The position numbers and the translations under genes are program-made. DNA of 64,000 bases, taken from NCBI GenBank assembly GCA_038087875.1, contig CM075988.1:26414001-26478000 (forward strand), read 5' to 3'. This document shows positions 3,414-59,600 of this stretch, one piece after another. The DNA comes from Malacoraja senta (lineage: Eukaryota). The notes beneath the pieces were generated by a model. That model saw nothing but the letters and a program-made list of their open reading frames with translations. It searched no databases and was not told the origin of the DNA. The first letter of the stretch is position 1. Every line of letters starts with the position of its first letter.

Positions 3414-5278
3414 CTGATTGTTGGTGAATATATTTAATTAATCAACTGACCTTTCTTCCTCCAAATTCCAAATTAATTTCTACAGGTCCTAACTTATTTT
3501 GCTTATTGAACCAAGGCTGAATGGAACTTGATAACATTCACTGCTGAAGCTCATTCACAAAGAACGGGTGCTTTGGTGAGGTAGCGAAGCCTTTGGCACC
3601 AGGGCAAGACGATGTTCAGGAGATACAGATAAAGCTATAAAACAACTATCTCTGAATCACGCTAGTTTCCAATGCCACCCAATATCTAAGGAAGTCAAGC
3701 AAATGTGATTAGTGAACAATTCTAGAAACTGGCTACAAATACAATTATATTATTTAGTGAATAAGCCACTGTACTTGATTATATTATCATAGCAGAATAG
3801 TTAAGGGGAAAATACCATTGGACTAATAAAGCCTACATTTTTATTTCCTTAAATCACCTCTCACTGGCCCGAGTTCCAGTATTGTAAACCTTGTAGCGAA
3901 CCATTCTTGTAGCAGCTTGACTCAAATACCTGAACTCTATCATTGAAGCACAGGCCTGTAAGATCCTTATTGTCCTAATGAACACTGTCCCTCTTGTACC
4001 CTAACATTATCATTTACATGCTCTTTCACTAATGATCCGTCAGCAAATGATAGTGACCATTAGTCCCACAAACCACCCATCTCATTCTCCCTCAACCCAA
4101 TCTCTCACGGGAGTCGGTCTCTAGTTTCCCATCTCTTTGATGGAAGGCTAGCAATTCCACTGAAATATGACATATCAGTATCCCGCTAAAATATAATCTG
4201 CTGACGCTAAAGTCATCGCGAATATTTGTCCTCTATGTCACATTTGTTTCCAATAGATTATAAATATACAACCTCGGTCTATGTAACTGACTTTAGTTGA
4301 AGTAACATTCTGGACTCGTCTATAACTCTCAGTTTAATTTATTTCCTGGAACAGCAGTGCCCCTGAAGTGTTGAACAGAAACATGGAACATAGTAAGACA
4401 GGGTAGGGGGAATGTGTATGGGCATACCTGCCCTCATTGCTGAAGCATTGTTTAAGTGTTGGGACATCATGTTGCAAGTGTGGACAATGTTGCTGAGGCC
4501 ACACTTGTCTGTAGCTATGGCTGTACACTGTAAGGAGGATGTAAGTACCCTGGAGAGGGTGCAGAAATGATTCACAAGGGACGTTGCTTAGCCAGGGGTA
4601 GTGGTGAAGGCAGATACGAAAGTGACATTTTAGAGGCTTTCAGATGGGCAGGGAACGGAGGAACATGGATCACATGCAGAGCTGATTACTTTAATCTAGC
4701 ATTATGTTCAGTACAGACATAGTGGGCCGAAGGGCTTGGCCTTTTTACCCAGGAAAGACGAAGGCTGAGACACGACATCATGGAACAATATCAAATTAAC
4801 AGAGGCATGTATAGGTTAGATAGCAATGTCTGTTTCCCATGGTAGAGGTGTCTAACGTAGAGGGCATGCTTAAGGTGAGGGAGAAGGTTTAAGGTGGATC
4901 TGAGGATACATTTTTCATATAAAGAGTAGTTGGTATATGGAATGAGCTACCTGAGAAGGTGGTGGAGGCATGGACAGTAACAATAGTTACGCAGCATCTG
5001 TACAGGTATTTAAAGCTAAAAGTAGCAGGGTATATGTAGCAGGGCATAGAGGGGTAATGGAATTAGAACATACATTGAACCTAGAACAGTACAGCACAGG
5101 GGCTTGCCCTTCAACCAACCATGATGCTAATCCAAACTAAAGTTAACTGCTTGCATATGGTCTTTATTCCCAGCATATCCATGTGCCTATCTAAATGCTT
5201 CTTAAACATTGCTATCTGTTTCCACCACTTCCCCAGCAGCACCTTTCAGGTTCTAAAAACTTTCCTTGTAGACTTTCT

Positions 5279-7200: not shown

Positions 7201-7805
7201 CTGTGTTGGAATAAAGAAGGAAAATAACTAAAAGGAAACAGTTCTCCATCAATTTCACCGATGAAAATTGCACTTGTTAAATGCAGAGTTGGATTATCCC
7301 TGCCCTGTCTTTATTAACATTTCCCAGAGGTGATACTTTTTAATATGATATCCAATAGATGCGACACTGACAAGTCCTGTATGTGTTGTCCATTTCTAAT
7401 ATCGCTGATATTGCCTTCTTGAACAGCGCGAATGCATATATCAGAGGTGCACAGTGCAGCGATGTAGAGTTTAGACCCAGCAATCACGAAAGATGACGAT
7501 TTGTTTCCAAATCCGGAAGGTATGTGACCTGGATGGGAACTTGCAGCTGATGGAAAACTCATGTACCCGCTGTCAGCTCTTCCTGGATGGTAAAACATGC
7601 AGGACTGGGAAGTCCAGTGGAAGCAAATGTAGGTGCTGTAATGTGTTCCAGAGGTGGCAGGAGAATGGGGTTGAGTAGGATGAATAGATCAGCCATGATT
7701 GAATGGCCTAATTCTACACCTTTGTCATTGGCCTTTCAAGTGGATTAAATCAGTGCACTGTTTTCATTGGTGAGGGTTGGTAGAGGCAGCAGGGTTTACA
7801 CTCAC

Positions 7806-7975
7806 CGCCTTCTCTCCAGTGCCATTATAAGGGGAGTACAACCATTCCAGCTTGATGTTGCGCATATCAGTGTGTTCGTGGTAGTCAAACATGCAGTCTA
7901 ACCGTAGATCCTTTCCCTGTTTCACAACCAGGTACTCTGGGGTATAGATACTAACAGCTGAGACTGGCCAGACAT
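7806..7975 (-). CDS. JAML/MPZL-family Ig receptor, first half of the V-set domain
   Basis: [23 protein letters not shown]...IKLEWLY provides the B-strand Cys and C-strand Trp. TAG acceptor, GTGAGT donor, 170 bp, phase 1 to phase 0. Confidence 0.88.
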
Positions 7976-8014
7976 CTACAAGGTAAAAGAAACCATCTGA
8001 ACTTAGACATCGAC

Positions 8015-9425
8015 ATACAGTGACACACAGACAGTGACAGACAAACAGACAGTGGCAGACAGACAGTGACAGACAGACAGACAGTGACAGACAGATAGAC
8101 AGCGACAGACAGACAGACAGGGACAGACAGACAGCGATAGACAGACAGTGACAGACAGACAGCGACAGACAGCGACAGACAGGCAGTGACAGACTGACAG
8201 TGACAGACAGACAGTGACAGACGGACAGGGACAGAGACAGACAGACAGCGACAGACAGACAGCGACAGACAGACAGCGACAGACAGACAGCGACAGACAG
8301 ACAGCGACAGACAGACAGACAGTGACAGACAGTGGCAGACAGACAGTGACATACAGACAGTGACAGACAGACAGTGACAGACAGACAGACAGTGACAGAC
8401 AGACAGTGACAGACAGACAGTGGCAGACAGACAGTGGCAGACAGACAGTGACAGACAGACAGTGACAGACAGACAGTGACAGACAGACAGTGACAGACAG
8501 ACAGACAGTGACATACAAACAGACAGTGACATACAAACAGACAGTGACAGACAGACAGTGACAGACAGACAGACAGTGACAGACAGACAGACAGTGACAG
8601 ACAGACAGACAGTGACAGACAGACAGACAGACAGTGACAGACAGACAGACAGACAGTGACAGACAGACAGTGACAGACAGATAGCGACAGACAGGCAGTG
8701 ACAGACAGACAGACAGTGACAGACAGACAGACAGTGACAGACAGACAGTGACATACAAACAGACAGTGACAGACAGACAGTGACAGACAGTGACAGACAG
8801 ACAGACAGTGACAGACAGACAGACAGTGACAGACAGAGTGACAGACAGATAGCGACACAGACAGTGACAGACAGACAGTGACAGACAGACAGTGACAGAC
8901 AGACAGACAGTGACAGACAGACAGTGACATACAAACAGACAGTGACAGACAGACAGTGACAGACAGTGACAGACAGACAGACAGTGACAGACAGACAGAC
9001 AGTGACAGACAGACAGTGACATACAAACAGACAGTGACAGACAGACAGACAGTGACAGACAGACAGACAGTGACAGACAGACAGTGACATACAAACAGAC
9101 AGTGACATACAAACAGACAGTGACAGACAGACAGTGACAGACAGTGACAGACAGACAGACAGTGACAGACAGACAGACAGTGACAGACAGAGTGACAGAC
9201 AGACAGTGACAGACAGATAGCGACACAGACAGTGACAGACAGACAGTGACAGACAGACAGACAGTGACAGACAGACAGACAGTGACAGACAGAGTGACAG
9301 ACAGACAGTGACAGACAGACAGTGACAGACAGACAGACAGTGACAGACAGGCAGTGACAGACAGGCAGTGACAGACAGACAGACAGTGACAGACAGACAG
9401 ACAGTGACAGACAGACAGTGACAAA
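8015..9425. repeat. Compound (GACA)n/GACAGT microsatellite, ~1.4 kb, intronic
   Basis: Direct observation; it produces the spurious Cys/Leu/Ser/Val ORFs. Confidence 0.97.
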
Positions 9426-11439
9426 CATCGCAGAGTCGAGTTGAGCTGGGTTAATTTCCATCCAAGAGGATGCTGCACCAACTATCTGTAATTCTATTTA
9501 CAGGACACTTAAACCTCTTGATTCGAGTTCAGCCCGTGACTGACTCACGGATATCTCTTACTCTATATATAATATCCAAAACATGGTTAGCTTTCATCTC
9601 TTTCCATCCCCTGATACCGGATATACTGTATTTATGCACAATTATCACTCTGTAATTCACTCCTAAATGTTTATGAATTTATACAAGGAAGACAAAAATG
9701 CTGGAGAAACTCAGGTGAGGCAGCATCTATGGAGCGAAGGAATAGGTGACGTTTTGGGTCTAGACCCTTCCTCAGACTTTATGCATAAACCCCTGAGCTT
9801 CTCTATTACATTCTGTTTGGTAATATATTTAAGAGTATTTGTTATTAACAACCTGCTTCATTTCAAGTTATCTGTTATAATCCACTCACTCACCTTGATT
9901 CTAGCTGAGAACTTTTCATCATTCTATGTGTAAAGCAGACAAACGCCAACATTATATTCAGTAGCCCAGCCACAGATCTCCAGGCATAATCGCCCCAAAC
10001 CATCTTTAGATTCTAGCCTCTGGTCTTTGATGGACAAACTTGCAATTCCAGAGCATTGATGCAAAGTATCTTTTGAAGTGTTGTCACATTTCTCCCGGGG
10101 TCTGATAAATGACAGCTCACTCTATGTAACCAAGCGAGCATTGCTACTTTAATCTTGGGGATTTTAATTTTGCTAACATGTAACCCCCATGATATGGTGT
10201 TTGGTCACAGACCTGTGAAAGACCATATTAACCACATCAACAACACTACTCTTTACAATCCTCTTATTGTTCTTCTAAACATTCTATTAAATGAGTAAAG
10301 AGAATTAGTCTTGAACAAATTGGGACTGGCTTGGTGTACTTATTACTTAATTGAGAGTCAGCTTGGGATGTCCATGCCACCAGTACAGGAAGAAACAGAG
10401 ACAAACTCTAAAGTGGTGTTTGAAGCAGATACATTCGCAATGTTGAAGAGACATTTAGACAGGTACCTGAACAGGCAAGGAATAGAGGGATATAGATCAA
10501 GTGCAGGGAGATCGTGGTAGTTTAATTTGGTGTTATGGTCGCTGCTGACACAGTGGCCTTAAGGGTCTGTTCCTGTGATGTACTTTGCTATATGCCTTGT
10601 TCTCAATAGAATTTAAAGGCAGCTGAAATCTCCCTACATAGGCAGTACGTTTAGTTTCCAAATAAGGCTTTCTTTGAAGAAATATAATCACTCCTTGTTT
10701 TAACCTGAAGTACTTATTCACATTAAAAGTTAAATTGGTCTGCAGCGTGCTAGCTGTTGTTGGTAAAATTCAGGTGCATGCAATGGAAACTGCAGGTGGT
10801 TTGTGGTTGGGCAAGAGGAAGGGATTTTGTGAAGTGATTTCCCCTTTATTGTAAATTACTGCTGCAGCTCTGCAGTAAAGTGTTCAACTGTGTATGGTCA
10901 AAGTGTCCACATAATTACAATTGAGCAAGGATCCACCATCATGTGGCTGTCCGCAGTCAAGTGGGCTTTAAACCTAGCTCCTGAAGGTTCCCCATGGCTA
11001 AAGAGTTCAGAAAAAGGGAATGTGGCTGGCATTCAATACTGAGGGTTTAGGTCAGAGAGCAGGGGATAGTTGTGATGCTGTATAATAGGTTGGATACATG
11101 GTTACAGGGGAATGGGTAAAGGGATATGAGAATGGGCAGGTATGAATGAGAGGGGGGGGGGGTAACATGCTCACCCTGAGGTCAACATTACAGGTAAAGT
11201 CTAGTCCAACACACCATGTATTATACTGTACATGGATCCATGGAGCCCCCTTGCACTGATGCACCTTGGACTCCATTCCACCTGAGACACTAGAGTGGGG
11301 ATTTCATTGACTTCTCATTGGGATTGACAGATTCTGTGGCACTATTTGAAGGGTGGCTATGGAGATTTTGCCAACCGCCATTCATTCTTTAATCACTTGG
11401 TAGTGTTGTAGGTCGTGAGAAGTGTTATCTAAGGCTAGA

Positions 11440-24067: not shown

Positions 24068-25296
24068 CTGAAAAGAAAGGTTGGAGTTTCAGTACAGAGA
24101 TCACTCAGCCCTTCCAGATAACATAACAGCACTCAGGATCACAGTCGCAGATTTATGATTTGGTGCTGGTGAGTATAAAGAAAGTATCCTTAAACTATGC
24201 AAACATTAAATATTCTAATTTTCCACAGTGAAAGAGTGCAGTTATGGTAACTTGCATCTGTATACCACAGTTAACATCTAAAAACATTCAAAGATGCCTC
24301 CAAGACGATTATAATAGTTTGGCAGTGAAGCTGGAAAAAGTGGTATGTTCTAATATTGGACAAGAAAGCTGGTTCCTTTGAACGTCTGGAAAAGAGTGGT
24401 TTAAAGTAAACCCAGATCTTAAGCCATTCATAGGCATAATAGAATCTAGCTTAGTTTAGTTTTTATTGTCATGTGTACCGAGGTAGAGTGAAACGGTTTT
24501 GTTTTTACAATAAAACAAGGAAATAGGAGCTGGAGCTGGCCATTTGATCCTTCAATATGATCATGGCTTATCTGTCCTTGTTCTCCAACCTCTTCTGTGC
24601 CAATTCCCCACATTCTCCAATTGTAAAAATTTTAGACAATTTATCTACAGCAAAACACTAAATTGCAAGAAGAACTCAGTAGGTAAGACAGCACCTGTGG
24701 AGAGAATGGACAGATAACATTTCAAGTCAGGACCCTTCTTCAGACTGATGGAATTGGGGGGAGCGAATACTGGAAAAGAGAGTTGGGGGCAAGGTGAGGC
24801 CTGGCAAGTGATAGGTGGATACAGGTGAGGAAGGGGCTTGTGGTGATTGGCAGATGGGTGGAGATAGTGACAAAAACTAGAGGTGAAAAGGTGAACATCT
24901 ACATCTATTTAAATTCCTCCGGCTAAATAGAGTAGAATAACCATCTATTTAAATTGATCCAGCATCTGCAACCTTGCAGAGTAGAACATTTTCAGAGATT
25001 TTCCATCCTCTGTGAAAAATATTCTGACACACCTCACTTGTAAACGACCACACTTGTATCTTACAACACATTGGAGACTCTCCAAGTGGAGGAAACATGG
25101 CAACAGACCCTTCCTGTTCTCAACCAAACCAAACTAGCAGGTTTAAAATTGTAGCCATTCATTTCTAGTTTGCTGTTTGAGGATGGATTTCAGTGCAAGA
25201 AGATTAAATAAAAGTGACAAATACCCAGCAGCCAAGTGGCAACACCACCAGGTTACCCACTTCCCGGCTCTGTTGCGCTTCTTTCTCAACACTTAC

Positions 25297-25429
25297 CATA
25301 AGGGGAATCCTCAATGTTATCGTACAATTTGCTGTAGCCACGGATTTCTGCAAAGAACAGTCCAACCGTCGGAATACTTATCCATGGAAGTGATTGCATA
25401 GCATACTTTATTTCTCGTCGCACTTGATT
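25297..25429 (-). CDS. SC5D: SC5D coding exon 2 (133 bp)
   Basis: NQVRREIKYAMQSLPWISIPTVGLFFAEIRGYSKLYDNIEDSPY; TAG/GTAAGT splice sites; not in the ORF track. Confidence 0.96.
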
Positions 25430-25904
25430 CTATGGAGAGATAAAATAAGTTCAGTACAGGTGACCTGAATATTGCAGCCGTTTGGGCAAGGGAAATTTGT
25501 CTTGCAGAATTCATTTCCCAAAATTTGTGATAAAGTATAATAACATTTATGTAAAAAAATTACAGAATATATGTAAAGGAAGTAAATAGATAAACGTTTT
25601 TAAGTGCAGATGATGTGGCTTTGATATACAGAAAATTACATGAAAGATAGTTTGAGGAATGCAACCCCCCATAATGCAAGAGTTGCCTGTCACTCTTTCA
25701 CTAACCTGTGTGCACTTAAATTGCCTTGGCTCACAAACATTGAGAAGCACCTGAACACAAAATATTATCAAATAGTGGTGCAGGGGAAGGTGCAGCAAGC
25801 CATGATGTCTACATCAGTCTCTCTCTCCTCAGAGTGTGATGCCTCATTCTGCTTCAATAACAAAATATTTCCGCATTCTAATCTTTCAAGTTTCTCTTAT
25901 ATTA

Positions 25905-26646
25905 TACCAGGGAAAGACCTAGTGACGGCCTGGAGAGACTGCTGACCGGAGGGAATAGACCCCACCGGGGCTGGCATGGGCTAGCTCCTCATGCCAGCAG
26001 GATCCATTGCTAATCAGCGTTTTGGATCCACCCTTATATTGCTACGGAAGGAATCGACTATGAATAAGAGAACTAGCACAGCAATTGACAGAGCAGCAGC
26101 CCCCGGCAGGACATAAGCTAAGAAGCTGCATCTGTGGCTGGGAAAAGATAACATCAGAGAAGGGTCTCAAGATCCACCAGGGCAGTGAAAAGTGCCTGAG
26201 AGAGCTTGGTGAGGGGCCTCGCATTGACCATTACTTTCTAAGAGGTAGGCCAAATCAGTCGAGTGAAGCCCAGTGGCAGGTTAACCACCACAGTCCACAG
26301 GGTATCAGCACCCCAAGCGAAGCTCAACCAAGTACTGTCCCACCAACGGACACGAGTCCAGAGTCCAACCAGCCACAGTCAGCGGTAGAGTGGAAGATGG
26401 AAGGAAAAAAGCAGAATGGAGCAGTCACTGGCTGTGGCTGAAGAGAAAAGATGCTGTCTGGGCTGCCATGTGACCATCTAGAGGCTAACCATAAGACACA
26501 CACCCAGGGCTGATCACCCTGCGGAGGGCCTGCCTCAACTGAGGGTGTCTTGTGATAAAAGGCCGAAACACCCAGTGACGTTGAGGTACACAACTGAAGA
26601 TGTGTCTTGGATCCACCCTGTCTTAGACACAACTGAAGATGTGTCT
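25905..26646 (+). mobile_element. HERO/NeSL-like (restriction-like endonuclease clade) non-LTR element, internally deleted
   Basis: An N-terminal zinc-finger-like CICG...GLKIHQG..KC is joined to the C-terminal SHWLWLKRKDAVWAAM* and a structured 3' UTR. Clade assignment is from memory of the family. Confidence 0.6.
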
Positions 26647-27738
26647 GATTGGTAGCAAAATCACCTAGTGGTCATCCCCAAGAATACCAGGTGTCAGTTG
26701 TGGTGAAAAACCTTAAGGATTGTAACATCCAGTCCCACTAATCAATTTACCCGCAAAATAGCAACCACAAACGCCAGTGAACATAATTTACTTTGAAGGC
26801 GAATTCTCCCAGATATTAATCTTCAAATAAGTAAAACCATAACTTTTCAAATCTCTCTTGATGCCCATTTACACTCATACAATAAAGTAGTACAAATTGA
26901 ATTAACATCACAGGCAAGGCAACACATACAAAGATAAGAATTTGCCACTGCAAGGAATAAAATAACTGCTTCACCTTTTAAATGCGAAGTTCAGCATATC
27001 CCTGACAGCCCTCAATAATTCCTACAGATGCACTGTAGAAAGCATATCGGGATGCATCACGGCATGGTTTGGTTAACAGCTCTATCGAAGACAGCAAGAA
27101 ATTGCAGAGAAATGTGGACGACATAGTCCATCACGCAACCCAACTCCCTTCCATTGACTCCATATATACCATCCTGCATCGGCAAGGCCAGCAGCATAAT
27201 CAAGGACCAGTCTCACTCCGGTCACTCTCTCTCTTCTGCCCTCTCCCAGGACGTACAGATGTTTGTAAACGTATGCCTCCAGATTCAGAGACAGCTTCTT
27301 CCCAGGCAACTGAACCATCCTATCACCAGCTAGAGTGTGGTCCTGACCTTTCATCTACTTCATTCCAGATCTTTGAACTAACTTTAATCAGATTTCATCT
27401 TACACAAAATATTGTACGCTGTATCCTTTATCTGTACACTGTGGAAGGCTTGATTGTAATCATGTATTGTGTTTTCTTTGACTGGATAGCAAGCAACAAA
27501 AAGGTTTTCACTGTACCTCGGCACACGTGACAATAATAATCTAAAATAAACTAAATCCACTTGGGAAATGAGAGAGGAGGCCATTTAAAACTGGATCAGG
27601 GAATCTAACTATGAGTGGTTTACACGCAGAGTACTCAATACCCAATACTGATCAGTGGTGTAAAAATCAAATCAAAACACGTTGTCACATATTTCCACAG
27701 AAAAGGTTCTATGGAACATCCATGGATGTAAGACTTAC

Positions 27739-27948
27739 TGGCAAATATTGTGGATGTTTCTTCAGTGTATGATCAAAAATAAGATAATAGCTCAACATTC
27801 CAAAGAACAGATATATAGCGGTGGCTCCCAGGTTGGTTACAATGAGGAGGCTAATTATCTGACGTAGAGCGCCACCCTCTGGCCAGGTGCTGGGATACAC
27901 ATACGGTGTGAAAACGTGGTCATCTGCGCAGCGTAGTACAATGTCCAT
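27739..27948 (-). CDS. SC5D: SC5D coding exon 1 (210 bp, start codon)
   Basis: MDIVLRCADDHVFTPYVYPSTWPE...FDHTLKKHPQYLP; ACCATGG Kozak context, acceptor at 27957-27958, GTAAGT donor. The joined CDS is 873 bp (290 aa). Confidence 0.96.
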
Positions 27949-28044
27949 GGTAGAACCTGCCAATAAAGAGAAGAGGTTGTAGTAGTTCATCACAAATGAC
28001 GATTGCAAGTCTACCGTCTGTTTCAGAGCTACATTCACGGAATA

Positions 28045-28960
28045 CTTGAGTCCTTGTTATATTCCTGAGGGGGATATGTAAAGTTAATGTGTGAATTCAA
28101 ATGGTGTGTTTATAACTGTTGCATGTGGGCTGTCCTGCTTAATAAACCACTGCACAATGTCATGCATTGGCTTGGACAGACACACAATAGCCACAGACTG
28201 GTCTCATCTGAAGGATTACCTTTAAAACATTAACAATTTTAAAAGAATGGCAACCATGCATCAATTACAGCTGCCCCGAGGCTGCCTGAGGATTTTCTCA
28301 CAGTAGGACAATCTATTTATTATGGTCATTTATACAAACTGACAATTTTAAAATGATGTTAGGTGATGTACATTGAATGTTACCCAACTTAGTGTAGTTA
28401 CTTTGCATGATAGATCCCAAACATTGACCAGATGGCAACACCTTTATTATCAGACCAGTAACCCTGAAATAATCATTCAGATCCCACTATTATAGATATG
28501 GTACCTACTGTAGATTCACTAAATCTGAAAACAAGTCACATTAAAAGTGATTATGTAACCACAGCTCTCACAAAGCTAATACTTTGATCTCAATCCAACA
28601 CCCACTGCAATATGTTAAAGAAGGAACTGCAGATGCTGGAAAATCGAAGGTACACAAAAATGCTGGAGAAACTCAGCGGGTGCAGCAGCATCTATGGAGC
28701 GAAGGAAATAGGCAACGTTTCGGGCCGAAACTCTTCTTCAGACTGAAGAAGGGTTTTGGCCCGAAACGTTGCCTATTTCCTTCGCTCCATAGATGCTGCT
28801 GCACCCGCTGAGTTTCTCCAGCATTTTTGTGTAACCACTGCAATATGGTTGACTCTTAAAAGCTTTTGAAAGAACCCTTCAACCGATAATTATAAACACA
28901 CCATTTGAATTCACACATTAACTTTACATATCCCCCTCAGGAATATAACAAGGACTCAAG
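28045..28960. repeat. 71-bp perfect inverted repeat pair (28045-28115 / 28890-28960)
   Basis: CTTGAGTCCTTGTTATATTCC...GGTGTGTTTATAA and its reverse complement. Confidence 0.9.
28615..28834. mobile_element. Penelope-derived palindromic mini-element with 13-bp TSD
   Basis: Head-to-head PLE termini centred at ~28741, flanked by CCACTGCAATATG on both sides. Confidence 0.8.
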
Positions 28961-33335: not shown

Positions 33336-33560
33336 TAGGGCGGAGCCGGCGACTGACTGACTGCCTGCCAGTTGCAGCAGCCAATCGCAGGCGGCCGTGT
33401 GACCCCCCCGCCTCCTCTGGAGGGGCCGGGACAGCCAATTGGCGGAGGGGGCAGGGATGCGGCGGGCCAATCACACACTCTGCGTCAGCTCAGCTGCGGC
33501 TGCCATTGGCCGAGCAGTCGTCTGACCAATGACATCAGGATAGCGCCACCCGCGGCGCTC
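33335..33560 (-). promoter_or_regulatory. SC5D: SC5D CpG-island promoter with CCAAT boxes and an SRE-like site
   Basis: CCAAT/ATTGG at 33381, 33435, 33467, 33505 and 33526; ATCACACAC at 33470; GC box at 33338; CRE-like TGCGTCA and TGACATCA. Confidence 0.75.
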
Positions 33561-33564
33561 TTCA

Positions 33565-34692
33565 AGCACTGGGACAGGGGGCACTGGGACAGTGGTGGTG
33601 GGGGCACTGGGACAGGGGGCACTGGGACAGTGGCGGTGGGGGCACTGGGACAGGGGGCACTGGGACAGTGGCGGTGGGGGCACTGGGACAGGGGGCACTG
33701 GGACAGTGGCGGTGGGGGCACTGGGACAGGGGGCACTGGGACAGTGGCGGTGGGGGCACTGGGACAGGGGGCACTGGGACAGTGGCGGTGGGGGCACTGG
33801 GACAGTGGCGGTGGGGGCACTGGGACAGGGGGCACTGGGACAGTGGCGGTGGGGGCACTGGGACAGGGGGCACTGGGACAGTGGCGGTGGGGGCACTGGG
33901 ACAGGGGGCACTGGGACAGTGGCGGTGGGGGCACTGGGACAGTGGCGGTGGGGGCACTGGGACAGGGGGCACTGGACAGTGGCGGTGGGGGCACTGGGAC
34001 AGGGGGCACTGGGACAGTGGCGGTGGGGGCACTGGGACAGGGGGCACTGGGACAGTGGCGGTGGGGGCACTGGGACAGTGGCGGTGGGGGCACTGGGACA
34101 GGGGGCACTGGGACAGTGGCGGTGGGGGCACTGGGACAGTGGCGGTGGGGGCACAGGGACAGTGGCGGTGGCGGCATTGGGACAGGGGGCACTGGGACAG
34201 TGGCGGTGGCGGCATTGGGACAGTGGCGGTGGGGGCACTGGGACAGTGGCGGTGGGGGCACAGGGACAGTGGCGGTGGCGGCATTGGGACAGTGGCGGTG
34301 GGGGCACTGGGACAGTGGCGGTGGGGGCACTGGGACAGGGGGCACTGGGACAGTGGCGGTGGGGGCACTGGGACAGTGGCGGTGGGGGCACTGAGACAGT
34401 GGCGGTGGGGGCACTGGGACAGTGGCGGTGGTGGCATTGGGACAGGAGGCACTGGGACAGTGGCGGTGGGGGCACTGGGACGGGGCACTGGGACAGTGGC
34501 GGTGGGGGCACTGGGACAGTGGCGGTGGGGGCAGTGGGACAGGGGGCACTGGGACAGTGGCGGTGGCGGCATTGGGACAGGAGGCACTGGGACAGTGGCG
34601 GTGGGGGCACTGGGACGGGGCACTGGGACAGTGGCGGTGGGGGCACTGGGACAGTGGCAGTGGCGGCACTGGGACAGGAGGCACTGGGACAG
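33565..34692. repeat. G-rich minisatellite (GGGGGCACTGGGACA / GGGGGCACTGGGACAGTGGCGGT units)
   Basis: Direct observation; ~1.1 kb of alternating 15- and 23-bp units. Confidence 0.97.
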
Positions 34693-35006
34693 GTAAATGG
34701 TAGCAAATTGAGGAATGCAGTTGAACAGAGGGATCTAGGAATAACTGTGCATAGTTCCCTGAAGGTGGAATCTCATGTAGATAGGGTGGTAAAGAAAGCT
34801 TTTGGTGTGCTGGCCTTTATAAATCAGAGCATTGAGTATAGAAGTTGGGATGTAATGTTAAAATTGTACAATGCATTGGTGAGGCCAATTCTGGAGTATG
34901 GAGTACAATTTTGGTCGCGTAATTATAGGAAAGATGTCAACAAAATAGAGAGAGTACAGAGGAGATTTACGAGAATCTTGCCTGGGTTTTAGCACCTAAG
35001 TTACAG
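34693..35006 (+). mobile_element. CR1 LINE fragment running into the assembly gap
   Basis: EQRDLGITVHSSLK...LVRPILEYGVQFW. Confidence 0.88.
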
Positions 35007-57940: not shown

Positions 57941-59600
57941 TTAAACATACTCGCCATACCTGTCTGGTGGTCTACTAACACGGCCCGAACGCGTGCGGAC
58001 CCAACCATCCCCTCCCTCAACTGAAGGATTAGGCGGAGAGGCTGAAGGTGAAAACCGCACGGGAGAGGATTGTGGTGACCGAGGGGGGAAACATGCGGTG
58101 GGTGAAACCCCGTGGTTAGTGGAGACAGATGGACGTGGGGGGGTGCCAGGCATGCGGGGACGGGCGGGAGACATTGCGGAAGGCGGCTGGAACTGGAGCG
58201 GCGGAGCATAGGGATCAGCAGGCGGTGGTTGGGGCTCCTTCACAGCAAGCAGGTGTTGTCGACTTCTCTGGTAAACCGCTCCCTCACAGTCCACAAGGTA
58301 CGATCGCGGCTCATCAGTCGGGCGCACAACAATGCCCAGACGAGAATGTCCAGTTGGAGTTCGTAGACGAACGACCTGGCCCGGCAGTAGAGGCTGGAGT
58401 GGTCTGCTGGAACTGTCGTATGACCGTTTTTGGATATCGTGCTTCTCTTGGAGACGTTGCTGGATAGTGGCGGGCTTCAACACCCGAGGAACCAGCCGCT
58501 GTTGTGCGATGGGGACCGGAGACCTTGTCGCCCTCGACAGCAGCCGCTGTGCTGGTGACCCCAAGATTCCGTCTCTTGCGGTGTTTCTGAGATTCAGTAG
58601 ATCGAGATAGACGTCAGACTTTGAAATGCGCCCTCCCGCCAGCAAGTGCTTGGCGCTTCTGACAGCGCGTTCAGCGAGTCCATTACTCTGTGGATATTCG
58701 GGACTGCTTGTGACGTGCTGGAAGTTCCATCGGTCGGCGAAAAGCTTGAACAAGTGGCTGGTGAACTGTGGACCATTGTCGGTTCTCAGAATAACAGGAA
58801 TGCCATGGTCTGCGAAATGTCTTTTCAGCTTCCTGATGACCATCTCCGACGTGAGGAAGGTCAGTTGGTCAAGTTCAAACCAGTTGGAGAACGAGTCGAC
58901 CAGAACGAGGTAGTGCTTACCGCACCATTCGAAAATGTCCGCAGCCAGCGACGACCATGACAGTGCTGGTGGAGGTTGTTGCAGAAGGGGTTGCCGCTGC
59001 TGATGAGGTGCAAGATTGTTGCAACTGGGGCAGGAGGCTACGCGGTCCCGGATGTATGTGGCCATTCCGGGCCAGTAGAACAGATCCCGGGTGCGTGCCA
59101 GTGTGGAGTCAGCTCCTGGGTGACCGTTGTGTACCTCTTTGAAGTATTCGTCTTGTAGCGATGCAGGTACAACTACCTTGTGGCCCTTGACGACCACACC
59201 ATCCTGAACCACCAGTTCATCGCGGACCAAGAAGTACGGCTGCACCTCTGTGGGCGTGTTGGATTGTTTGTCTGGCCAGCCTGTTTTGATGATGGACGAG
59301 AGGGCTTGAAGCGTATCATCCTTGGGAGTGTGCGCGGCCAGGGTGCGCAGTTGCTGGAGACTAGACCGAAACCGAGAACCATGAAATTCTCCCGTTCGTG
59401 TGGGTGTTGTTCGCAAGATGATCGAGGGGCACGAGAGACGGTGTCAGCAACATGCATGTCCTTGCCCTTTGTGTAGGTAATAGAAAAGTCGTACCACTGC
59501 AGCTGCATCATCATGCGCTGCAAACGAGTTGGGGCGGCGTGGATAGGCTTGTTCAAGATTGTCATCAGTGGTTGGTGGTCCGTCTCAACCATGAACGTGT
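57941..59600 (-). CDS. pol: Gypsy pol remnant: RNase H end (frameshifted) plus integrase
   Basis: ETDHQPL RNase H motif; integrase HHCC (HNGH...CPSC) and D,D35E (AADIF, TDNG, AERAV). Confidence 0.9.

Follow-up and report, generated by a model that had tools for sequence, protein, structure and literature searches.

A complete set of hammerhead core letters, embedded in a predicted RNA domain of about 125 nucleotides (nt), was found in the 3' untranslated region (UTR) of a repeated element of Malacoraja senta. The element lies in a stretch of 64,000 nt (assembly GCA_038087875.1, contig CM075988.1, forward strand positions 26,414,001 to 26,478,000), hereafter called the window, and is a dead copy of a short derivative of a long interspersed nuclear element (LINE). 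The domain comprises two helices (P1 and P2), a hairpin with a putative kink-turn (K-turn) and two pseudoknots. It is situated at or just after the stop codon of the open reading frame (ORF), is common to autonomous LINEs and their short derivatives, and is supported, as far as sequence comparison goes, by four lineages. We give about an even chance, all analyses taken together, to its core being of the hammerhead type and competent for cleavage.

The site had been singled out by a sequence-only reading of the window, and the words on which that reading relied are all present on the plus strand where it had placed them, namely GGGTGT-C (26543-26549), TTGTG (26550-26554), AAGGC (26559-26563), GAA-ACACCC (26565-26573), CACAA (26589-26593), CTGAAGA (26594-26600) and GTCTT (26604-26608). 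The window was scanned for the same constellation, i.e. a stem III strand, UH and a stem I strand, followed by GAAA with the returning stem III strand and by the returning stem I strand with CUGANGA. The flagged site alone matched and was counted twice, because CACAACTGAAGA is repeated at 26628-26639. None of 100 dinucleotide shuffles of the window contained the motif with stems of at least 6 and 5 base pairs, and a single one did with at least 5 and 5. The motif exceeds chance for a single window; scanning very many windows would still yield chance cases. It had also been predicted that standard models would overlook the motif, and this was borne out: Rfam 15 gave no match to any hammerhead model over the whole window at gathering score, and no ribozyme between 26200 and 27000 up to E = 10, where four weak snoRNA-type matches alone appeared. 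A covariance model of the domain, run on the window, recovered no second copy besides the flagged one.

The domain was compared in 15 sequences (14 distinct rows) of one genome, belonging to four lineages named S (the short element of the window), FL, T and T2, with Tb as a further sub-lineage. The elements of the domain in the window are as follows.

26491-26500, plus strand: 5' strand of P1, ATAAGACACA, pairing with 26640-26649.
26501-26526, plus strand: P2 hairpin with loop CUGAUCA at 26510-26516; the stem covaries and loop positions 2-7 are constant in the four lineages.
26527-26530, plus strand: GGCC, proposed 5' strand of stem II (10.1-10.4), directly after P2, pairing with 26561-26564.
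26533-26539, plus strand: 5' strand of P3a, CCTCAAC, in the outer part of the K-turn hairpin, pairing with 26580-26586.
26540-26542, plus strand: non-bulged strand of the putative K-turn, U-GA, with a constant GA preceded by U, G or C.
26543-26548, plus strand: stem III strand GGGTGT (16.6-16.1), pairing with 26568-26573.
26549, plus strand: C17, with cleavage predicted 3' of this base by analogy with hammerheads.
26550-26554, plus strand: 5' strand of stem I, TTGTG, in the hairpin loop, pairing with 26589-26593.
26555-26560, plus strand: linker AUAAAA between the stem I and stem II strands; four of its six positions vary between lineages.
26561-26564, plus strand: GGCC, 3' strand of the proposed stem II (11.4-11.1); the T lineages have G[A/G]CCC with GGGUC.
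26565-26567, plus strand: G12, A13 and A14, constant in the four lineage majorities.
26568-26573, plus strand: stem III strand ACACCC (15.1-15.6), according to the pair table of the alignment.
26574-26579, plus strand: bulged strand of the putative K-turn, AGU-GA-C; GA and U are constant, whereas L1, L2 and 3b vary.
26580-26586, plus strand: 3' strand of P3a, GTTGAGG, drawn from covariation and RNAalifold.
26589-26600, plus strand: 3' strand of stem I, CACAA, and C3-A9, CUGAAGA; this first copy is the one used by the sequence-only reading.
26608-26646 (or equally 26588-26626), plus strand: 39-nt insertion private to the window copy, which duplicates CACAACTGAAGATGTGTCT and adds TGGATCCACCCTGTCTTAG.
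26640-26649, plus strand: 3' strand of P1, TGTGTCTGAT, which directly follows CUGANGA in uninserted copies.

The FL 3' UTR was 79% identical to window positions 26506-26609. The T lineage was found by means of a pattern taken from loose contig ends of a sequencing run, which covered the T-type loop and gave 928 matches against 23 for its control; a pattern for the T-type CUGANGA side gave 576 against 0; Tb and T2 are sub-lineages of T. The core pattern itself had 1130 exact matches in the genome, against 6 for its control. Both T and T2 domains stood directly behind ORF ends that were 42-52% identical to that of FL, and T/T2 and FL are therefore well-separated LINE families. In the T lineages the domain made up nearly the whole 3' UTR, with a tail of about 30 nt behind it, and the T stop codon UGA was located inside the 5' strand of P1 (CCACCUGAACACA; loci L175, L179 and L181), so that a terminating ribosome would hold the domain open in this lineage.

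Over all helices, 94.7% of alignment cells could pair. Changes on both sides of a pair were observed at 18 of 39 pairs (7 of 11 in P1, 2 of 4 in inner P2, 1 of 5 in stem II, 6 of 8 in P3a and 2 of 5 in stem I), compared with 13.8 +/- 1.6 in shuffles, 2 of 500 of which reached 18. The covariation score was 0.417, versus 0.183 in shuffles (reached by 0 of 500), and sliding the partners gave 0.110 at most; the shuffle figures are not to be taken as probabilities, since the lineages are few and come from one genome. RNAalifold unaided recovered P1, P2, P3a and the inner stem, P3b, and the minimum free energy fold of a single S copy displayed the same layout, P1 included (z = -3.36). Two of the stems drawn by the sequence-only reading stood up well in this comparison: stem III was paired in 98.8% of cells, and stem I in 94.3%, the latter with the forms UUGUG/CACAA in S, UAGUG/CACUA in FL and UGAUG/CAUCA in T and T2. 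No spacer occurred at the steps from A9 to P1, from P1 to P2 and from P2 to G10.1 in any of the four lineages, a layout that would amount to a perfect four-way junction. The loop of P2 had the consensus YUGAUCA.

Between P3a and stem III, the strand ACACCC-AGU-GA-C-GUUGAGG faces CCUCAAC-U-GA-GGGUGU, i.e. NGA opposite RRUGAY, with both GA pairs constant. K-turns are defined by a canonical stem, a 3-nt bulge, tandem G-A and A-G pairs and a second stem, and the arrangement thus has the form of one; its positions L1, L2, 3b and 3n vary between lineages. Two other structures were considered and rejected. A local hairpin of ACACA and UGUGU around CUGAAGA loses its closing pair in FL, where the same change is compensated in stem I, and a second K-turn built from CUGANGA would have a discontinuous opposite strand. 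The stem III variant GAGUGU, read in a loose end of run X7, had 6 genome matches for which the partner letters were not displayed, and provided no usable covariation.

The core letters fall into place around these helices. The complete hammerhead core announced by the sequence-only reading, in the order site block, GAAA block, CUGANGA block, is kept in all four diverged lineages. CUGANGA stands directly 3' of the returning strand of stem I, with lineage majorities CUGAAGA, CUGAUGA, CUGAUGA and CUGAGGA. The N-U-H triplet (GUC, 26547-26549, in the window) is followed at once by UUGUG, and in GGCC-GAA-ACACCC (26561-26573) G12-A14 are found between stem II position 11.1 and A15.1-U16.1. Among the 35 unpaired columns, 12 differed between lineage majorities. 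The nine letters that are invariant in hammerheads (C3, U4, G5, A6, G8, A9, G12, A13 and A14) were not among them, and both positions that hammerheads leave free were: N7 was A/U/U/G and H17 was C/A/C/C, with A in FL and C in S, T and T2 (hypergeometric P = 2.4e-3). A15.1-U16.1 and C15.2-G16.2 were invariant in the 14 rows, and G10.1-C11.1 was G-C in 12 and G-U in 2. Two T2 copies read GUGAGGA, with C3 changed (1 in the first 100 of the 576 matches listed); these are private mutations. Since C11.1-G12 forms a CpG, many dead copies would have lost G12 or C11.1 by ordinary CpG decay; several copies (L175, L179 and L189 of T, and loose ends of run X7) read TG or CA there.

For stem II, the most likely partner of GGCC at 26561-26564 appears, from the alignment, to be the upstream GGCC at 26527-26530, which would put G10.1-C11.1 beside G12. 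Column pair 55-88 of this helix was C-G in S and FL; T and T2 had U-A instead, and Tb had U-G, with 100% of cells paired. An alternative register would fit equally, in which the U and G after A9 are taken as the extra U and as G10.1 pairing with C11.1, as in the printed CUGAUGAUG. P1 would then start two pairs later; where FL has changed at the two top pairs of P1, nothing but wobble pairing is left.

The order of the blocks lies outside hammerhead types I-III, as had been claimed, but it is not an unknown one: it is that of the type SGC hammerheads, which were published in 2023 with experimental validation, and the topology is accordingly not new. This type was described by Eckert, Friedrich, Weinberg and Weinberg in Nucleic Acids Research (PMC10085705) from metatranscriptomes, as the HRIMA-1 motif and variants, together with a type CSG. 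According to the same report, type SGC RNAs were cleaved at the predicted site, cleavage was lost in a core mutant and was rescued by compensatory changes in four helices; they have a stem I of 5 base pairs, a linker of about 3 letters from stem I to stem II and a helix tying the other sides of both stems (PMC10085705). Among RNA papers, no follow-up on type SGC beyond Eckert et al. was found.

The domain shares with type SGC the block order, the 5-bp stem I, the short linker into a stem II strand before CGAAA, the words CUGAUGAUG, at most 15 nt from stem III to the returning stem I strand, a tying helix (here P3a) and two core pseudoknots. In the RNAMotif descriptor hhead-SGC (PMC10085705 supplement), a 5' stem III strand of 4-7 letters, UH, a 5' stem I strand of 4-7, an unpaired stretch of 0-8, a 5' stem II strand of 2-6 and CGAAA are followed by the 3' strand of stem III, an unpaired stretch of 0-15, the 3' strand of stem I, CUGAUGA(U)G and the 3' strand of stem II. 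All elements but the last, with N7 left free, were present in 8 of our 15 sequences, and two FL rows matched the printed words CGAAA and CUGAUGAUG exactly. The other seven carry private mutations, several of them at the C11.1-G12 CpG. The domain differs from type SGC in that the stem II strand lies upstream of the site block, with P1 and P2 between A9 and G10.1, and in that the tying helix is continuous with stem III through the putative K-turn. It also resides in the 3' UTR of a vertebrate-type LINE, in about a thousand or more copies, whereas type SGC comprises metatranscriptome RNAs linked to hairpin ribozymes, for which cleavage was shown. The LINE setting, the putative K-turn and the split CUGANGA block are what is new here.

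Several observations weigh against an active hammerhead. The last element of the descriptor, a 3' strand of stem II right after CUGAUGA(U)G, was present in none of the 15 sequences, so that the domain is not a member by the published definition, and is at most a variant with a split CUGANGA block. The letters after CUGANGA (UGUGUC...) do not pair with those before GAAA, and A9 runs into P1 rather than into the 10.x strand of stem II. Known hammerheads, as discussed by Eckert et al., have at most one or two letters inserted between CUGAnGA and the stems (PMC10085705), and there is no precedent for an active core here, because a whole two-helix unit stands between CUGANGA and stem II. Stem II itself is backed by one compensatory event (C-G to U-A), and the same G-to-A change would also suit the partner U chosen by the sequence-only reading (G-U to A-U). 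Stem III never covaries (5 of its 6 pairs are invariant in the 14 rows, with both-side changes at 0 of 6), and the P2 loop and K-turn letters, among many unpaired ones outside the hammerhead set, are constant too; the strong constraint may come from protein binding alone. All compared copies carry both sides of the predicted cut. A search for copies starting exactly at position 1.1, among at least 1130 core copies, gave a single match for the S/FL pattern, which proved to be an intact junction carrying an additional T, and none for the T-type pattern; this counts as mild evidence only, since a control position also gave 0. Finally, no clear benefit can be named for an internal cut in an element that is copied from its 3' end.

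These objections bear differently on the possible explanations. That the constellation is a functionless coincidence of short words in AC/GT-rich repeat DNA is barely credible. The ACAC/GTGT-rich region does offer many alternative pairings and the motif was picked by eye in a very large scan, yet at most one shuffle in 100 reached it, and the covariation of the helices across lineages as diverged as FL and T refutes this explanation as far as the helices are concerned. Very improbable, though with somewhat more in its favor, is the exact model of the sequence-only reading, a three-stem knotted hammerhead that uses GTCTT (26604-26608) and AAGGC (26559-26563) as stem II and makes the 3' end of the element. 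Three of the five stem II pairs (columns 87-133, 88-132 and 90-131) are possible in 14 of 14 rows, and the UG after CUGANGA is constant, as in the printed type SGC words. Against this, T26608 is private to the window copy, pairing fails at the two remaining positions, 85-135 and 86-134, in 8 and 11 of 14 rows, a 3-nt bulge (UGU) is needed beside A9, and the extra C of the T lineages would bulge the helix. The letters of the 3' strand moreover belong to the covarying P1, and the end of the element is 197 nt further downstream; this stem II was abandoned.

A domain that is real without being a ribozyme has to be taken far more seriously, and we place its chances somewhat below even. It would be an RNA handle, recognised by the reverse transcriptase for target-primed reverse transcription as in R2, in which the hammerhead-like letters would be kept for the sake of a compact junction, with tandem G-A pairs and a U-turn, or for contacts with the protein. 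The location right after the stop codon, the near-complete occupation of the 3' UTR in the T lineages and the presence in autonomous LINEs as well as short derivatives all agree with such a role. So do the constancy of stem III and of many unpaired letters outside the core, the genomic copies that hold both cut sides and never start at the cut, and the separation of stem II from A9, for which active hammerheads offer no precedent. What this explanation leaves aside is that three covarying helices have GAA, CUGANGA and UH as their spacers and that an A-U pair closes stem III, a combination that unrelated letters would give about once in a million (estimated as 4^-9 times the pair and H terms), and that the sole core positions to vary are the two that hammerheads leave free. 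The roles of handle and ribozyme are, besides, compatible.

In the hammerhead-type core that we propose, the inner stem GGGUGU/ACACCC would be stem III, the downstream pseudoknot UUGUG/CACAA stem I and the upstream pseudoknot GGCC/GGCC stem II, with G10.1-C11.1 beside G12. The C or A after GU would be the cleavage site, and GAA and CUGANGA would be placed where the core needs them. The 10.x strand would be separate from A9, P1 and P2 being inserted between them as a four-way junction. P3a would join the far end of the 10.x strand (via UG) to the far end of the returning stem I strand (via UA), and the K-turn would fold P3a back, so that stems I and II are held together at their far ends. The RNA could then adopt a hammerhead-type active site and cut after C26549 or its equivalent, and the element's reverse transcriptase would bind the same domain to start copying.

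As to function, the sequence-only reading had suggested processing of the element's 3' end, an idea that does not agree with the copies: 28 of 28 dispersed copies compared continue to 26745/26746, 197 nt past the predicted cut. In FL the corresponding distance, taken from the alignment, is about 300 nt; in T it is about 110 nt, of which about 30 lie beyond the 3' strand of P1. Since the site block comes first, the 3' product of such a cut would still contain the tail and the blocks GAAA and CUGANGA, yet all copies reach a common 3' end, and 3'-end processing does not fit. An internal site does not by itself exclude activity, because in other hammerhead-bearing retroelements both sides of the cut are present in every copy. 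From its position and its presence in both autonomous and short elements, the domain is most likely a handle for the element's reverse transcriptase, probably with a hammerhead-type core also able to cut. Cutting, if it occurs, would most likely serve to free units from read-through transcripts or from transcripts of head-to-tail arrays, or would be coupled to translation, rather than make the 3' end of the element. The first use is suggested by the frequency of tandem arrangements and the second by a stop codon in or just before P1 (inside it in T). Template jumping by enzymes of the R2 type is another possible source of tandem arrays.

A bolder proposal, which we regard as unlikely, is an active hammerhead of unseen build, made of four strand segments, with stem II coming from upstream across a four-way junction and a K-turn in stem III, that would act at once as a reverse transcriptase handle and as a cutter that can be switched. 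While ribosomes terminate at the stop codon, in or beside P1, folding would be prevented; the folded domain would release unit RNAs from read-through or array transcripts, and these might be ligated into circles as in retrozymes. Such unit RNAs or circles would help to explain the tandem arrays.

Hammerheads have been described in Penelope-like elements, retrozymes and Schistosoma SINE-like repeats (PMC4209133, PMC7229834, PMC4918200). Titles and abstracts of the literature on hammerheads of non-LTR and fish retrotransposons brought up Penelope-like elements, retrozymes and HDV-like agents and mentioned none in an R2-type 3' UTR. The hammerheads of Penelope-like elements, retrozymes and Schistosoma are type I (or III) three-way junctions that ordinary descriptors find, and they occur in Penelope-like terminal repeats or in small non-coding repeats, unlike the present domain, which belongs to the 3' UTR of an R2-type LINE. 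Common to both are a core inside a retroelement, both cut sides in each copy and frequent head-to-tail or partial tandem copies. In the SAM-I riboswitch, a K-turn brings a hairpin loop back into contact with a junction strand. The present hairpin resembles it in the succession of a stem, a 3-nt bulge, tandem G-A/A-G pairs and a second stem, and in a kinked hairpin loop that forms pseudoknots with junction strands; no ligand-sensing role is suggested here.

Likeness to R2-type elements themselves is of another kind. R2Tg binds a small, pseudoknotted and kinked RNA at the end of its 3' UTR, which is necessary and sufficient for insertion (PMC12222951). The present domain, too, would be a small pseudoknotted and kinked RNA belonging to the 3' UTR of an R2-type element; we claim no similarity in sequence, and the R2Tg element, as presented in that report, consists of 67 nt with base triples, its description containing no hammerhead letters (PMC12222951). 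R2 and other LINEs carry HDV-like ribozymes at their 5' end, which free the RNA from co-transcripts (PMC3774820). These ribozymes have in common with our case a predicted self-cleaving RNA in an R2-type element, but possess another fold, are located at the 5' end and cut upstream of themselves.

The repeat of the window consists of the following parts.

25906-26746, plus strand: short, non-autonomous LINE derivative of the S lineage, a dead copy, with 5' UTR, broken N-terminal ORF piece and 3' UTR.
26060-26441, plus strand: remnant of the N-terminus of a LINE ORF (CxC...H...C motif), frameshifted, as judged by comparison with other copies.
26650-26746, plus strand: remaining S-type 3' UTR, ending ...ACTAATCAAT; the FL lineage is devoid of this part.

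A search of the host genome (1.94 Gb) with 26400-26720 gave 41 listed matches out of 1049 first-look candidates, and a second one gave 1130 first-look candidates for the repeat. The common 3' end of the 28 dispersed copies contrasts with 5' ends that range from 25906 (6 copies) to 26319, the pattern of target-primed reverse transcription. The repeat encodes an ORF start, MNK...CICGWEKITSEKGLKIHQG..., of which 122-169 codons are open in most copies. Other copies read MNK(R/I)TSTAIDR..., and the window copy reads IRELAQQL... in a different frame. This piece was 65-81% identical to the N-terminus of proteins of 1124-1175 amino acids with a reverse transcriptase domain from fishes of four genera (best alignments, 9 of 13 hits), and RVT_1 was recognised in the relatives P0004 and P0001. 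A full-length partner of the S element was looked for with a junction pattern, which had 0 matches in the genome, and loci with longer frames turned out to be ordinary short copies.

The window copy bears several marks of death: the frameshifted ORF piece, a T to A change at 26525 that breaks one P2 pair and the private 39-nt insertion. The latter appears as a 20-nt direct repeat (26588-26607 and 26627-26646) and was found in none of 29 other aligned copies. Even L003, one of these copies, in which the whole locus 24901-28292 is duplicated at 97% identity, is free of it. L002 (about 1690-1720) has a different, 26-nt palindromic insert at the same spot. The stretch CUGAAGA between ACACA and UGUGU looks like a rearrangement hotspot, as L046 has two copies with deletions there, and the unique part of the insertion (TGGATCCACCCT...) resembles 26024-26036 in the element's own 5' part.

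The FL family is full-length in the same genome: 40 of 40 scored matches were full length, most of them with open frames of 1181 amino acids (1179 from ATG to stop in L049). In its reverse transcriptase part, the best solved relatives were R2 proteins, with L1 ORF2 close behind, and the C-terminus displayed, by eye, CxxC...H...C and RPD...E...K, which we take to be the mark of LINEs with a restriction-like endonuclease (R2, R4, NeSL, HERO). FL is thus classed, on sequence grounds, as an R2-type LINE, and the comparison reaches no further toward HERO. The copies often stand head to tail, about 3.95 kb apart, and the 3' UTR of the upstream neighbour abuts the copy in 7 of 8 distinct FL arrays. 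At loci L047-L056, mostly head-to-tail arrays, the 3' end (...TTTGATTC) of one copy meets the 5' end (TGATAATCTGGAC...) of the next. Short copies, too, are often found directly behind a partial 3' fragment of another copy (L006, L007, L014, L026 and L046). Contigs of uncertain kind, perhaps RNA, from three of four sequencing runs bridge the predicted site in the FL 3' UTR (X1, 4800-5135; X3, 4998-5139; X8, 4968-5151), with no letter differences listed between 5029 and 5156 and no accumulation of contig ends reported. A 60-nt contig of X3 joins L049 position 5027 to 5110 and thereby leaves out 82 nt between the P2 loop and the letters directly before CUGAUGA, which may be a deletion variant or a skip across the folded core.

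The 5' UTR is more conserved between S and FL (85% identity for 25906-26000 and L049 1365-1460) than the ORF start (76%), and forms a row of small hairpins separated by UGAC. It showed no HDV-like fold and no Rfam match, and no ribozyme was found at the element 5' ends of L049 and L046. Outside the window, on another contig of the genome, Rfam recognised at L046 3931-4008 (plus strand), about 1.6 kb downstream of an S copy, a CPEB3 (HDV-like) ribozyme (43.2 bits against a gathering score of 35, E = 7e-9). S and T elements end in ATCAAT, sometimes repeated (ATCAATATCAAT), and FL ends otherwise, as given above. Seven S copies share the 3' flank ATATCAA(A/C)AA, suggestive of a larger duplicated unit or of a preferred target. 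A metagenome scan with AAAAGGCCGAAANNNNNAGTGA gave at least 118 stretches, and none of the matches listed had both the hairpin and CUGANGA in place; they look like chance matches in unrelated contigs. The window also contains 200 N and other long open frames at 7764-9497 (minus strand), 33471-34992 (both strands) and 57941-59443 (minus strand).

To our knowledge, hammerheads that are not circular permutations are known only from metatranscriptome RNAs (2023). If the proposed core is true, no such hammerhead would have been known before from the genome of a eukaryote, nor any hammerhead associated with an element of the R2 type; its host would be an abundant LINE family, with intact copies, that carries it in the 3' UTR. 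The working rule that CUGANGA stays uninterrupted would no longer hold, and ribozyme searches would gain a wider range of targets. The K-turn of this core would answer the geometry puzzle of type SGC raised by Eckert et al. (PMC10085705), since the far end of the tie between stems I and II would be joined to the far end of stem III. The core would also link self-cleavage to an RNA that the reverse transcriptase must recognise. Even without cutting, the covariation-backed map of this 3' UTR provides a concrete model for the recognition of these LINEs and their short parasites.

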